A stretch of DNA of 64,000 nt, taken from positions 33,190 to 97,189 of the forward strand of contig CAVYRP010000010.1 of the NCBI GenBank assembly GCA_963770945.1, in the 5' to 3' direction. Both the position numbers and the translations under genes were made by a program. Shown one piece after another: positions 45,702 through 63,929 of the stretch (position 1 is the stretch's first letter; every line of letters begins with the position of its first letter). The notes beneath the pieces are model-generated. The model was not told the DNA's origin. It saw only the letters and a list, made by a program, of their open reading frames with translations, and did not search any database. Source of the stretch: an uncultured Bacteroidota bacterium. GTDB lineage: Bacteria; Bacteroidota; Ignavibacteria; UBA10030.

Positions 45702-45936
45702 AGAGTCCCTTCTCCTGGTCACAAACCCTGATGAAAATCGCAATTTGACAACAACAAAATTATTTGCATACAGAATTGCGTACAAATAAAAAAGGTGTTT
45801 GAAATTATCAAACACCTTCTCTGGTAAGAATAATCTATTTTATTCTATCCCGACGAAAAACAGCGGGATTCTCAAAATTACATTAAACTTAGCTTCACTA
45901 GCTTCGCTGTCTCGCTAAGTTTAGTAATTTTGGAAG
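45702..45936 (-). repeat. copy B of the about 230-bp module = actual trailer of tRNA-Phe
   Basis: Starts immediately 3' of tRNA-Phe (..CACTTCCA on the minus strand) and is colinear with 35632-35860. See copy A. Confidence 0.6.
45784..45818 (-). terminator. Rho-independent terminator of the tRNA-Phe transcript
   Basis: 11-bp stem AAGGTGTTTGA(45792-802)/TCAAACACCTT(45808-18). Followed on the minus strand by TTTTTTATTTGT. Confidence 0.75.
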
Positions 45937-46009
45937 TGGACAGGGGCGGAATTGAACCGTCGACACATGGATTTTCAGTCCATTGCTCTACCAACTGAGC
46001 TACCTGTCC
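45937..46009 (-). tRNA. tRNA-Phe (anticodon GAA)
   Basis: Hand-folded 73-nt cloverleaf GGACAGG-TA-GCTC-AGTTGGTA-GAGC-A-ATGGA-CTGAAAA-TCCAT-GTGTC-GACGG-TTCAATT-CCGCC-CCTGTCC-A. There is one A:C mismatch in the T stem (50:64). CCA is not encoded. Confidence 0.88.
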
Positions 46010-46165
46010 AAAATTTTCTCGATTTAGCGAGTGATAACGAAGCTAAATCGATTGAAAATTTTAGGATCCCGACGTTTTCTGTCGGGAGCCAAAATTCAAA
46101 ATATAAAAGAACTACTTTCACAACTTAACAATTGCAGCGAAAGCTAAGTTGTTAAAAAAGATTGC

Positions 46166-58704: not shown

Positions 58705-58795
58705 AAATGAAAAACCCCCAGTTCCATCGAATTAGGAAAAGGGGGTAATACAACGAAGTTCGTCATTATATCCCTTTCCTACCTCTCTGGATAGG
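58705..58795 (-). promoter_or_regulatory. PyrR-binding attenuator in the pyrR leader
   Basis: The minus-strand leader contains AUCCAGAGAGGUAGG (plus coordinates 58779-58793), matching the PyrR box ..UCCAGAGAGG... Downstream is a terminator CCCCCUUUUCC..GGAACUGGGGG + UUUUUCAUUUU (58705-58746), just before the SD/ATG. Confidence 0.7.
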
Positions 58796-58829
58796 AATTA
58801 AAGGAACTGCTCAAAGAACATATACTTCG

Positions 58830-59826: not shown

Positions 59827-62323
59827 TTACTTAATCAAAATCATTTTCCTGACCTGCGAGAATCCTCCCGCGCTCAAACGATAGAAATAAATTCCGCTGG
59901 CAAAACGGCCGGCGTTCCAGACAATCTCATATTTCCCGGGCCTTTTTTCTCCGCTCACCAATGTCTCCACTTCACGCCCAAGCACATCATAAATTTTTAA
60001 CGATACGGATCCGGTTACTCTAAGCTCGAATCTCACTTTCGTCGCCGGGTTGAATGGATTGGGATAATTCTGTTCAAGCGAAAATCGAGCAGGCACAGCG
60101 GATTTTTCTGCAACGTCTGTGCTTATCGAGGGTGTAAAGATCACACTGCTTTCATTTGCCGGAATCCTATCGATATAATCTCCTGTTTCAAGCCAGCTTA
60201 ATCCATTTGTCGAATCCTTTTGAATACCTACCATGATCGCCTGCCGTGTCTCATACAATCCAAATTTCTTAAAGTTGACCGTTATTGAACTATTCGATGC
60301 ATCAAGCACAAGTTGGAATGAATTTGACGTATCACCTTCCGCTTCAAATGTACCGACATTGATCCAGCTCAGAATAAACCGATTACCTGCCGTTTGATAA
60401 AAAATATTTCCGCCGCCGTACGGATCCTTCGGATTCAAATCGTAATCGTTATACGCCACAGCAATCGATGCAGGAAATTTTGTGTTGCCCGGCCAAAATA
60501 CTTCATTACTAAAATATCCGAACGAACTCAAAGAAGGATATCCGCTGTCAGTGATATTGAGAGCCTTTTGTGTAAAACTCACAAGACCGTTTATTCCGAC
60601 ATATATCGAATCGTATTTACTCCCGTAGTATGTGAACTCAAGCCCCAGCGGGATTGCATCTGCCGAATATCCGTCATCAAGAGATGAATCGCGGCTTGCA
60701 GTGCCGTTCATCCAATTCTGAATAGCGGTACCCGATTTTGAGATATCTACCCATGAATAAGTTGTCTTGCTTGCAGAATAATCGTTTGCTAACGAAACGC
60801 CCGGAACAATCTTGACATCGAACTGGATTGAATCCCCGTTAGCACTGCCGATATTTTTAATAGACAATCCTCCAGGAAGCCCGTCGCTTAGAAAACTGAC
60901 AGGATTAGTGGTATCATCTATCGCAGTCCGGCCGGAATCGCTGCTAAAAAATGCCCGGGATGATCTGCCGTTATTCCAGAGTGTTCCATCCGGACGAAAT
61001 ACGTAAATTTCATCGGGAGGACCTGAGACATTACCGCTTACTCGCTCGTTTATCCGGTAAACAATTAATCCGCTTCCCGGAAGCTCACTTTCGTAAAAGC
61101 CTGCCTTTTTCCGAAACTCAAGAACGAAATATTCCCTTACACTTCTCGGCGATTTTATTTTATACACATTGTTTGTTGGAGAGGACGACACTTTAAGCCA
61201 GTAAGTACCATCGGAGGAAATTTCCGGAATCGAAGAAATCCATTGGCCGTATTTATATTTCATATAATTTGTCATATGTGCATTGCCGCTGCTCATAATA
61301 TCCCATGAGCCGCATGGATCGATAGCTGTATTGAAATAACGGTAGAGATCCGGCATGCCTATGCTATGTCCTGTTTCGTGGCAGAGCACTCCTACAGTCA
61401 AGCATTTTTTCAAGCTGAAAATTGTATGATGAAACTGTCTTTCCATTAATTTGAATCTCGGGCGACGACGGCATCGAGGACTTATGCGGCCATAAAAGAT
61501 CCGACCAGCCCGCGGCAGTGCCGGAAACAATAAAGGTCACATTATCCACTTTTCCGTCTCCATCGCTGTCTAGATTAAGGGAACTCGGGATGTGCGGCGT
61601 AATATCTGTGAGCGCGTCACTTAGAAGCTTATCTTCGCGCCTGTAACTATCTGCATCCGATGTATATCCGTTAGGATTCGTGATCTTGTCGTACTTGAGA
61701 TAATACCCGCGCTGAAAGGTATTCTGATACGAAACTATCATATTCCCTGAACTCTGATATATATAACTCGATACCGTAAGCTGGTCCCATGAAACTTCTT
61801 TATAATAATGTTTGAGCGACGGCCCGGAGGTCGAATTAAATAGAGAATTATATTCGCTGACGGAACCGGTAAATTCGTCCTCATATTTAAAACGAATGAA
61901 GACCACAAGATTGGAAAATTCACTGCTCTGAACACTACTCTTTGAAACCTTCGACAAATATGCTGCTTCTGCAAGTGTTTGTCGTTGTTTTAAATATGAT
62001 GGAAAAACATTTACGCCCGGTGTCAATCCGGCAGTTTTAGGGTCGCTCCTGCCGACAATAGAAGATGATGGAAAAAGTTCTCCCTTACCCATAATCGCAT
62101 AGACATAATAATGCGAGGATGAATCCTGGATGATAGTATAATTATCTTTATCGTGCACCCAATTATAGAACTCATCGCCGCTTGCAAATACGTGCAATCG
62201 TGTTCCATCCGGCTGTACAAGCTCGATAGGAACAAATGATAGCGGCGCCGGCCATAGTATTGAAACGGCGAGAACTTGAATAATCAAAAGTGCAGAAATC
62301 CTTAAAATCCGGAATCGGGACAT
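59827..62323 (-). pseudogene. secreted M6-family (immune inhibitor A-like) metalloprotease with T9SS C-terminal sorting domain, frame broken once
   Basis: ORF 61364..62323 (signal peptide and M6 N-terminal region) joins ORF 59827..61530 at ..NFQLEKMLD/VGVLCHETGHSIGMPDLY (HExxH). The C-terminal ..FSLEQNYPNPFNPATKVRFEL..GIYFYRL..KMILIK is a type-A T9SS tail. The shift lies near 61405. Confidence 0.8.
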
Positions 62324-62462: not shown

Positions 62463-62744
62463 TATAGGATTGCGTTAAGTGATGGAGCGACACACTGGAC
62501 TGAACAAGAACAAAAAAAAGATCGTGCGAGGCAAGATTATATCGAAGCTTTAGGTATTCGGGTACTGAGATTTACAAACGATGATATTTATACAAATAAA
62601 GACGGTGTATTAAACACGATATATACAGTCTTAGAAGAGAAAGAAAAATATATAAATGGCATTGAGAAATACTTGATAATCGACCACCTCCTGCCCCCTC
62701 CTCATTTGAGGAGGGGAGAAAGGGGTGGTGAAGTTGCACGATGA
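62463..62744 (+). pseudogene. 3' remnant of a DUF559 (Vsr-like endonuclease) gene, no start codon
   Basis: Open frame from the stop at 62460-62: ..DGATHWTEQEQKKDRARQDYIEALGIRVLRFTNDDIYTNKDGVLNTI..PPPHLRRGERGG*. The N-terminal two thirds of the domain are missing. It contains the GC-rich hairpin CCCCTCCTC-ATTT-GAGGAGGGG (62695-62716). Confidence 0.55.
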
Positions 62745-62957
62745 ATTTTTGAAATTTCTGCGTCTAATAAAAAAGAAAAAAGTCTCAGTTTAGTGCGGTC
62801 AGGTGGAATGACTAAAATATTGAATCGTGCCCTGCACGATTGCATTCTCAGGCCTCCGGCTGTCCTGACCGATAATATTGAGTGTCGGGAAGCAATTCCC
62901 GACACCACAAACATATTTATTACTAAAAAAAGGACAATCTCTTTGATTGTCCTTTTG

Positions 62958-63034
62958 TGGACCGTATCGGGCTCGAACCGATGACCTTCCCGTCACGACT
63001 CCGTCGTGTCGGGACACTCTCCAGATTTGATGCG
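62958..63034 (-). ncRNA. tRNA-like element 1 (tRNA-Ala 3' part with the anticodon arm replaced by a long helix; no 5' acceptor strand)
   Basis: Minus strand: ..AUCUGGAGAGUGUCCCGACACGACGGAGUCGUGACGGGAAGGUCAUCGGUUCGAGCCCGAUACGGUCCA. The last 35 nt are identical to tRNA-Ala. It could equally be a pseudogene or an att scar. Confidence 0.5.
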
Positions 63035-63195
63035 TTTTTCGATATACTTTCTGCTTCTTAATTACGACATCATTAGGACTACATTCGCAATATTGTGTTC
63101 AGTAAGCATTTAATATCGAGTGTCGGGAAGCTTCCGGACACTACAAACATATGTATACTAGTATAAAAAAGGACAATCCTTCGATTGTCCTTTTG

Positions 63196-63272
63196 TGGAC
63201 CGTATCGGGCTCGAACCGATGACCTTCCCGTCACGACTCCGTCGTGTCGGGACGCTCTCCAGATTTGATGAG
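63196..63272 (-). ncRNA. tRNA-like element 2 (same architecture as element 1)
   Basis: Same sequence as element 1 except for a few substitutions (GAGAGCGUCC versus GAGAGUGUCC, plus differences in the 5' flank). Confidence 0.5.
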
Positions 63273-63331
63273 TCTTTCGATATACTTTCTGCTTCTTAAT
63301 AAGAAAGGACAATCCTTCGATTGTCCTTTTG

Positions 63332-63405
63332 TGGACCGTATCGGGCTCGAACCGATGACCTCCACAATGCCATTGTGGCGCTCTCCCATGCTGAGCTAAC
63401 GGCCC
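63332..63405 (-). tRNA. tRNA-Ala (anticodon GGC)
   Basis: 74-nt cloverleaf GGGCCGT-TA-GCTC-AGCATGGGA-GAGC-G-CCACA-ATGGCAT-TGTGG-AGGTC-ATCGG-TTCGAGC-CCGAT-ACGGTCC-A. The G3:U70 identity pair is present. Confidence 0.9.
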
Positions 63406-63521
63406 ATTATTGTTCAAAATATACCCAAGGATCAGGGCAAAGTCAATCAGAAATTCATTGCGAAGGAACTGAGTTTTCAGTACTTTATAATTTATACTAA
63501 CGAACGAAACTGAAAAACTTT

Positions 63522-63929
63522 ATGACACGACTTCTTATATTTTTGCTCTTCATTTGGATTACTATTTTTGCTTTAAGCGGACTTACTTCCTGCAAAGATA
63601 CAATAACGGATTCATCAGAAATAATATTTCCCGATGATAGTATAAGTTATTCAAAATACATCGGCCCGTTATTCCAGCAGAAATGTGCACGTTCACCATG
63701 TCATGTTAGCAATAGTACAGACACGGATTTAAATCTCGAATACCCTTCATACTCAGCGCTGCTTAATAAGCCGGGACTCGTCATTCCCAGAAATGCAAAT
63801 CAAAGTGCTCTGGCTCAACATTTAGACGGCCGATTATCTCCCATGCCGCCGCCCAATTTCCCTCAGTTAACGCAAAATCAAATCACCGGAATAAAAAAAT
63901 GGATTGATGAAGGTGCAAAAAATAATTGA
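63522..63929 (+). CDS. hypothetical lipoprotein with a cytochrome-c-like C-x4-CH segment
   Basis: 135 aa. Lipobox LSGLTSC. FQQKCARSPCH resembles the PSCyt-type haem-binding context, but the spacing is not canonical CxxCH. Confidence 0.35.
   Translation: MTRLLIFLLFIWITIFALSGLTSCKDTITDSSEIIFPDDSISYSKYIGPLFQQKCARSPCHVSNSTDTDLNLEYPSYSALLNKPGLVIPRNANQSALAQHLDGRLSPMPPPNFPQLTQNQITGIKKWIDEGAKNN

Follow-up and report, generated by a model that had tools for sequence, protein, structure and literature searches.

Probable remnants of a small GIY-YIG nuclease cassette form a tandem array beside a tRNA-Ala(GGC) gene in an uncultured Bacteroidota bacterium

Free-standing GIY-YIG homing endonucleases are encoded in the transfer RNA (tRNA) gene clusters of phages T4/T6, as described for SegB in the available parts of two reports (PMC2330249; PMC13096335). 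The enzyme recognizes and cuts a T-loop motif of tRNA genes (PMC2330249) and, through homologous recombination, promotes the amplification in tandem (segmental amplification) of units made of tRNA plus nuclease gene, with amplified copies in which the nuclease gene can be truncated (PMC2330249; PMC13096335). SegB is the closest known system to a tandem array found on the minus strand of a 64,000-nucleotide (nt) stretch of DNA from an uncultured Bacteroidota bacterium (Ignavibacteria, UBA10030; GenBank assembly GCA_963770945.1, contig CAVYRP010000010.1, positions 33,190 to 97,189), the whole of which is referred to here as the window. The array comprises about 2.4 cassette copies joined to an intact tRNA-Ala(GGC) gene, and its units are, with high probability, the decayed tails of a small selfish nuclease cassette that carries a hairpin-plugged copy of the neighbouring tRNA. 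The object in the window is itself a decayed and ordinary relic; the cassette family to which it is assigned is widespread and apparently undescribed. Like SegB, these cassettes place a GIY-YIG gene among same-strand tRNA genes of many isotypes. Unlike SegB, which is a larger, site-specific phage enzyme with a 27-bp recognition site (PMC2330249; PMC13096335), the open reading frame (ORF) of the cassettes lies on bacterial chromosomes and encodes nothing beyond a catalytic domain of the Slx1/UPF0213 clade, with putative cleavage and homing activities. Measured against a SegB-like cassette, the tRNA association is present, an intact ORF is absent from the window and present in relatives, and an added DNA-binding or recognition domain is absent. 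The cassettes also contain a pseudo-tRNA in which the anticodon arm, and sometimes the T arm, is rewritten as a hairpin, a feature that finds no mention for SegB in the available parts of the two reports (PMC2330249; PMC13096335). The cassette looks like a new bacterial variant of the phage arrangement. In full-text literature, a coverage that leaves most subscription journals outside and an earlier description possible, no chromosomal GIY-YIG cassette with a hairpin-substituted pseudo-tRNA was found.

The best sequence match of the cassette protein is to the stand-alone prokaryotic Slx1/UPF0213 proteins (YhbQ-like; PDB 1zg2, 1ywl), which consist of the same minimal domain. The available part of a 2006 survey of the superfamily treats this group as the minimal form of the domain, suggests a link to RNA or tRNA only via a TrmH fusion, and contains no mention of a tRNA-gene neighbourhood, a pseudo-tRNA or a hairpin (PMC1564403). 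The cassette ORFs encode 84–97 amino acids (aa) and comprise the GIY-YIG catalytic domain only (Slx1/UPF0213 type). Four representative ORFs (L007, L040, L012 and L035) match the Pfam GIY-YIG family PF01541 with E values of 1e-13 to 2e-19, the residues Y, Y, R, H and E are invariant in the ORF alignment, and the nearest solved structures are those of UPF0213 (E 7e-14 and 1e-11) and Slx1; the NCBIfam model for group I intron endonucleases is matched only at E 0.009. Source annotations describe the ORFs just as "putative endonuclease" or "URI domain", and searches with PADLOC and PHROGs returned no meaningful match. Stand-alone UPF0213/Slx1-like GIY-YIG proteins are among the commonest uncharacterised small bacterial proteins, and the cassettes give them a concrete genomic setting. 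In fungal mitochondria, free-standing GIY-YIG genes insert at the 3′ ends of genes and bring with them, or duplicate, the terminus of the host gene. The likeness lies in a selfish ORF that abuts its host gene or is fused to it and in a duplicated fragment that is left as a pseudo-copy with function preserved; the fungal systems differ in their protein-coding organelle hosts, their long enzymes with DNA-binding domains and the lack of a conserved hairpin substitution.

The nuclease origin of the array is carried by the reading frame that runs into its units. In a tblastn search, the tail of unit 1, consisting of the last 21 codons and the stop of the GIY-YIG ORF (RSRKYIERLIKSGERPDTTES; 63296→63231, that is 63231–63296 on the minus strand, as are all features of the array), showed 81% identity to the ORF of locus L018 (E 7e-10), and the tail of unit 2 (RSRKYIEKRIKSGECPDTTES; 63058→62993) showed 71% identity to the ORF (E 6e-8). 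The unit 2 tail lies in a different frame from the ATG that starts this degraded second ORF copy (62993–63150), in which a premature stop follows after 23 codons and a second hairpin occupies the place of the GIY-YIG core. The stop codon of the ORF falls within the substituting hairpin in both units. At the syntenic Ignavibacteriota loci L002, L007, L017, L018, L032, L043 and L044, where tRNA-Ala(GGC) is followed by tRNA-Val(CAC) in the same order as in the window, an ORF of about 89 aa (about 270 bp) fills the gap between tRNA-Ala(GGC) and the module of pseudo-tRNA and hairpin. In the relatives the ORF begins a few nucleotides past the tRNA, or past the tRNA terminator, and runs into the module, and in the Ala-GGC lineage its stop codon sits in the 3′ arm of the hairpin. 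Alignment with L044, the closest intact relative, indicates that the ORF body is gone from unit 1 and is replaced in unit 2 by a short stretch holding the second hairpin. Since the ORF body is lost with the tails kept, the units in the window are ORF-dead derivatives of a nuclease cassette. A first-pass annotation, made from the sequence of the window alone, had described short inverted words that bracket each unit; the left word, ATATCGA, is conserved coding sequence (K-Y-I-E of the nuclease ORF) and not part of a terminal inverted repeat.

A sigma-70-like promoter (TTGACT-17-TATATT, 63418–63446) lies just 5′ of the intact tRNA-Ala(GGC) gene (63331–63405), and no other promoter-like site was found in 62600–63600 in a search limited to the sigma-70 type. 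The tRNA, which is the host gene of the array, was called by ARAGORN and by Rfam (57.7 bits against RF00005, matched span 63332–63405) and is followed by a terminator hairpin, AAAAGGACAATC-GAAG-GATTGTCCTTTCTT (63301–63330), so that the intact tRNA and strong terminator of the first-pass annotation are borne out. This terminator belongs to the first member of a 63-nt direct repeat, made up of the 3′ part of the tRNA and the terminator, which occurs three times with 98% and 86% identity. A longer repeat of 157 nt (88% identity) with a start-to-start spacing of 238 nt corresponds to the two units after tRNA-Ala; two near-identical units had been proposed, of 183 nt and separated by a spacer, whereas the true period is 238 nt. 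Each unit is ordered as CTCATCAAATCTGGAGAG(C/T)G, which aligns with tRNA-Ala positions ~10–26, then the substituting hairpin (here called H), then AGGTC with the T arm and ACGGTCCA, which match tRNA-Ala exactly, as had been claimed for the 3′ part, and finally a terminator copy, likewise anticipated after each element. In unit 1 the pseudo-tRNA-Ala (63196–63272) retains tRNA positions ~10–26 and 44–73, its anticodon arm being replaced by H, TCCCGACACGAC-GGA-GTCGTGACGGGA (63226–63252), with the ORF stop TGA in the 3′ arm, and the terminator copy lies at 63165–63194. Unit 2 contains a pseudo-tRNA-Ala at 62958–63034, the same H at 62988–63014 and a terminator copy with a differing loop, AAAGA, at 62925–62956. 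The replacement of the anticodon arm by a helix had thus been read correctly, with the corrections that the loop is GGA (3 nt) rather than GGAG and that the stem has one A·A mismatch. The D-loop word GGAGAGCG, thought to be kept throughout, is present in unit 1, GGAGAGTG being found in unit 2, and the tRNA copy that includes this word starts further 5′, at about tRNA position 10 (CTCA..GGAGAGCG). Neither unit has a 5′ acceptor strand, as had been noted. Neither was called as a tRNA by ARAGORN, nor matched any Rfam family even at E<10, and the genuine tRNA-Ala was the only one called. The H pattern occurs just twice in the window, both times in the array, with 0 occurrences expected by chance.

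The second hairpin of unit 1, GTGTCCGGAA-GC-TTCCCGACAC (63120–63141), recurs in a third partial copy at the end of the array (62873–62914), which consists of the ORF start ATGTTTGTGG, GTGTCGGGAA-TTGC-TTCCCGACAC and TCAATATTA. At both sites (63120–63141 and 62882–62905) the second hairpin is built from the same 9-nt words as H in an inside-out arrangement (GTGTCGGGA..TCCCGACAC), and in a fold of the whole array its two copies pair with each other over long range. It had been described as near perfect and as reusing the words of the replaced anticodon arm; the reuse stands, and the unit 1 copy has one mismatch (GTGTCCGGAAGCTTCCCGACAC). The second hairpin was not found in any intact relative and is specific to the array of the window genome. 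This specificity, together with TCCCG-stem hairpins that lie near tRNA-Phe of the window with no pseudo-tRNA, would be expected if the 3′ region of tRNA-Ala had simply been duplicated locally in tandem and the palindromes were either fortuitous or independent insertions of a repetitive extragenic palindromic (REP) or miniature inverted-repeat transposable element (MITE)-like kind, with no nuclease link. Such an origin is very improbable, given the 21-codon ORF tail and the colinearity of the DNA with intact cassettes, the precision with which the anticodon arm is replaced in each lineage, and a 7-fold enrichment of CCCG hairpins beside ORFs in a sample collected with the protein alone (1.14/kb within 250 nt of the ORF versus 0.17/kb further off). 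REP sequences and MITE-like repeats are short GC-rich palindromes, and the RAYT nuclease associated with the former is of the HUH type. As with REP/RAYT, GC-rich palindromes with a shared stem cluster near a small nuclease gene and nest in one another; the cassette nuclease is GIY-YIG and not HUH, and its hairpins replace arms of tRNA copies instead of being scattered between genes. Signatures of terminal inverted repeats or target-site duplications, as in REP/MITE elements, are not seen in the cassettes. A strict MITE was also rejected for the window itself, where terminal inverted repeats, target-site duplications and dispersed copies are all lacking. Among the options offered by the first-pass annotation, the capture of a tRNA half by a MITE-like element nevertheless comes closest to the truth: the units have lost their ORF and are non-autonomous derivatives of a cassette that in every case bears a partial copy of the tRNA next to it.

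To determine how far the architecture extends, two surveys were evaluated. The first was seeded with H joined to AGGTC in one genome per species and gave 42 loci, about 28 of them in a tRNA context and spanning Ignavibacteriota, Bacteroidota, Verrucomicrobia and Caldithrix; the other loci, in high-GC genomes, resemble the handful expected by chance. The tRNAs involved are Ala-GGC, Ala-CGC, Val-GAC, Val-TAC, Pro-CGG, Thr-CGT and Met-CAT. At every locus both flanks of H copy the adjacent genuine tRNA, one covering the D-loop region and the other the variable loop, the T arm and the acceptor strand, and only the anticodon arm is exchanged. The number of cassettes differs among species (one, two or three full copies), and ORF-less arrays occur at L038 (four or more copies with a 96-nt period), L010, L022 and L004. 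Rfam searches of 12 related loci (gathering, E<10) gave no family other than tRNA; two pseudo-copies scored as tRNA at 33 and 39 bits, and ARAGORN called others outright. Several pseudo-tRNAs (L009, L012, L022, L038, L042, L043, L045 and L046) have an extra hairpin placed exactly within the T loop (GGTT|...|CGA), in many cases with a TCCCG..CGGGA stem at its end; these inserts deserve note because phage SegB recognizes a T-loop motif. At L001 and L019 (tRNA-Met) and L011 (tRNA-Pro), ORF-less pseudo-tRNAs stand in tandem 5′ of the genuine tRNA, with the 5′ acceptor, D arm and hairpin present and the T arm truncated; at L001 and L019 part of the D stem is replaced by a second hairpin, CCCCGACAGGTCGGGG.

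As a search based on H is biased toward H, metagenome contigs were also scanned with the protein alone, using a five-sequence alignment, and relatives were encoded in 533 of 600 candidate stretches. The tRNA context was counted in the best 80 loci. An intact tRNA lies within 100 nt upstream or 120 nt downstream of the ORF in 64 of these: in 43 loci its end precedes the start codon by a median of 10 nt, in 23 it begins at a median of 14 nt past the matched part of the ORF, and two loci belong to both groups. More than 15 isoacceptor types are represented, and 89 of the 90 tRNAs share the strand of the ORF. Most of the tRNA-linked loci that were compared have, across the ORF from the intact tRNA, a pseudo-copy of the same tRNA, placed downstream when the intact tRNA is upstream, as in the window, or the reverse. 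Hairpins, whose stem is usually (T/C)CCCGA..TCGGG(A/G), take the place of stems in the pseudo-copies; positions ~24–33 are replaced in tRNA-Asn copies, the anticodon and T stems are rewritten with the loops kept in tRNA-Leu copies, and the whole T stem is rewritten in tRNA-Val(TAC) copies. Cassettes are thus found in genomes of Ignavibacteriota, Bacteroidota, Verrucomicrobia and Caldithrix and on numerous metagenome contigs whose origin is unknown. When plasmids and phages were searched with the ORF, only distant homologues (~42–45% identity) were found, and the one phage homologue inspected has no adjoining tRNAs. An Acido-Lenti-1 RNA motif (RF01687, 41.7 bits) was observed at 323–368 of L108, about 140 nt 5′ of a cassette-bearing tRNA-Arg.

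These surveys bear directly on attL/attR-type scars, which would be left by serial integration and excision of integrase elements at the 3′ half of tRNA-Ala and had been listed as an explanation in the first-pass annotation. Direct repeats of a tRNA 3′ part beside an intact tRNA are the classic signature of such elements (PMC9897764). Against this, no integrase was found in or near the array, and no recombinase is present among its neighbouring genes by ORF listing and Pfam. The relatives hold between the repeats a single GIY-YIG ORF of about 270 bp instead of an integrase-bearing island, and the hairpin-substituted design recurs at more than 15 tRNA species, on either side of the tRNA. Viral contig scans with the hairpin and with the tRNA-Ala 3′ half gave 0 matches, and there is therefore no sign of a phage attP. 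In comparison with integrase-mediated integration at tRNAs (PMC9897764), the cassettes lack a tyrosine or serine recombinase, the "island" is one ~270-bp ORF, the duplicate runs from the D arm to the terminator with its anticodon arm replaced, the copy may be upstream or downstream, and tandem arrays occur. We regard the scar explanation as extremely unlikely. The nuclease cassettes account for odd "tRNA fragments" and weak tRNA calls beside genuine tRNAs that would otherwise be filed as att scars or pseudogenes, and they suggest that tRNA genes may be invaded by minimal nuclease cassettes in addition to integrase elements.

The nuclease and the hairpin are both under constraint. The intact ORFs of the Ala-GGC lineage have ratios of nonsynonymous to synonymous substitution (dN/dS) of 0.14–0.25 at synonymous divergences (dS) of 0.4–0.8, and the nuclease protein is therefore functional wherever it occurs intact. 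Across this span of divergence H is unchanged at 27 of 27 positions, including codon third positions, in L002, L007, L018, L032, L044 and the window, indicating constraint at the nucleotide level. H has the form TCCCG-N-CAC..GTG-N-CGGGA in the Ala-GGC lineage. In other lineages its three apical pairs vary by double substitutions (GAC/GTC, GTC/GAC, ATC/GAT and GAT/ATC) and its sixth pair is A·A, U-A or A-U. The apical covariation score was reached in 0 of 500 shuffles and in no slid register, with 96.8% of cells paired; the nine basal pairs were set by the search pattern and carry no covariation information. H is a helix maintained by compensatory changes at three apical pairs, and the first-pass impression of a real, undescribed structure, for which compensatory changes in relatives were the proposed check, is upheld to this extent. 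The nucleotide constraint together with the covariation of the tip makes a cis-acting role as nucleic acid likely. The tRNA-derived repeats evolve in concert with their neighbours. Over a total of 1728 nt, pseudo-copies match their own tRNA with 97.5% identity, and 14 tRNA-Asn pseudo-copies differ from their own tRNA at 0–1 of 42 positions, compared with a mean of 8.7 differing positions between the tRNA-Asn 3′ ends of different loci, so that either each insertion creates the repeats afresh or gene conversion keeps them uniform.

The same conservation could be explained if the modules of pseudo-tRNA, hairpin and terminator were functional elements retained by the host after loss of the ORF, whether by yielding small RNAs that serve as decoys or mimic tRNAs or by acting in cis, for instance to terminate or insulate the tRNA-Ala operon. 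The two units agree completely (100% identity) in H and in the tRNA-derived part and differ in their flanks, the invariance of H extends across species, the module folds much more stably than shuffled sequence (z = −4.5), and the ORF-less arrays elsewhere show that modules occur with no ORF. The identity of the tRNA-derived part is, on the other hand, accounted for by gene conversion with the tRNA, and with only two units the 27-nt identity of H is not statistically compelling by itself. The module clearly originates as the tail of an ORF, and the units have neither a promoter-like site of their own (sigma-70 type) nor a 5′ acceptor strand or a matching Rfam family. Retained function is accordingly an improbable account of the array, and the independently terminated tRNA-mimic small RNAs proposed in the first-pass annotation find no support in that form, as the module is the 3′ end of a coding cassette. 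YrlA/Y-RNA-like small RNAs and the tRNA-like domain of transfer-messenger RNA (tmRNA) combine a T arm with D-loop elements and have no decoding anticodon loop. The cassette module differs in lacking a closed acceptor stem and an Rfam match and in being part of an mRNA tail, and its pseudo-tRNA copies the neighbouring tRNA instead of belonging to a conserved family. Y-RNA-like, tmRNA-like and retron-type RNAs were dropped for want of a match and of acceptor closure, and a type III toxin-antitoxin-like repeat array was dropped as no toxin gene is present.

In the proposed mechanism, the cassette would be a selfish, homing-endonuclease-like gene within tRNA transcription units, exploiting tRNA genes as conserved, highly transcribed and safe sites. 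Insertion would duplicate part of the target tRNA, and one intact tRNA would therefore always be preserved. The tRNA segments would be kept identical by gene conversion or re-created at each insertion, and as direct repeats they could drive both tandem amplification and ORF-deleting recombination, leaving relics like that of the window. The hairpin would act in cis by removing the anticodon, so that the extra copy is non-decoding, and is probably recognised, or specifically spared, by the Slx1-type nuclease, which would be structure-specific; alternatively, it may stabilise the 3′ end of the transcript. Invading cassettes may in this way shield the host tRNA, which they duplicate while putting the surplus copy out of action. 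If the nuclease recognises the hairpin or the structure of the tRNA gene, it would be a very small structure-guided enzyme, and the system would then parallel in bacteria the amplification that SegB was recently shown to drive in phages. A more far-reaching proposal, which we hold only tentatively and consider rather doubtful in its full form, is that the hairpin-plugged pseudo-tRNA and the minimal Slx1-type GIY-YIG nuclease together constitute a hitherto undescribed class of selfish elements in bacteria, capable of colonising tRNA genes of nearly every isotype, in which the (T/C)CCCG hairpin would be a cis site for recognition by the nuclease or immunity to its cutting, the tRNA homology would serve as the homing or gene-conversion arm, and ORF-less arrays would be non-autonomous members amplified in trans.

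Several observations weigh against the selfish-cassette interpretation. There is no intact nuclease ORF and no GIY-YIG motif anywhere in the 64-kb window, and any activity there must therefore be in trans or past; in addition, the middle of unit 2 is not significantly similar to the ORF. Neither an empty site nor a strain-level presence/absence polymorphism was recovered, exact look-ups of three window proteins having returned no other assembly. The nuclease ORFs have no DNA-binding domain, unlike proven homing endonucleases, and in the Ala-GGC lineage a terminator separates tRNA-Ala from the ORF, which makes expression by read-through uncertain. The ORF lineages follow tRNA identity, the nearest neighbour having the same tRNA target in 42 of 74 cases versus 9.5% by chance. 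This fidelity and the purifying selection also fit an old, vertically kept and perhaps host-useful gene, and H is perfectly preserved even in relics that lack the ORF, a hint that the module may have an action of its own.

Further structures were observed near the array and elsewhere in the window. Downstream of the array, a long GC-rich hairpin, CACCACCCCTTTCTCCCCTCCTC-AAAT-GAGGAGGGGGCAGGAGGTGGT, is located at 62683–62736 and gave only spurious, weak Rfam matches. The tRNA-Phe gene at 45936–46009 (minus strand) sits between two hairpins with the stem words of the cassette hairpin, TCCCGAC-AGAAAAC-GTCGGGA about 58 nt upstream (46067–46087) and TCCCG-CTGTTTTTCGT-CGGGA about 68 nt downstream (45848–45868). 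No GIY-YIG ORF was found around them and alignment scores for a pseudo-tRNA-Phe were at background level; the hairpins may be either relics of greater age or palindromic repeats of separate origin. Two overlapping ORFs (61364–62323 and 59827–61530) share between them an M6-family metalloprotease (59827–62323, minus strand) that carries a type IX secretion C-terminal sorting domain, the split representing a frameshifted pseudogene or a sequencing error. This block of about 3.3 kb is missing from the syntenic relatives, where a GBBH-like (DUF971) gene directly follows the cassette. Finally, a PyrR-binding leader (RF00515, 54.1 bits, just at threshold) lies at 58707–58808 on the minus strand between tRNA-Val(CAC) and pyrR, an ordinary arrangement.

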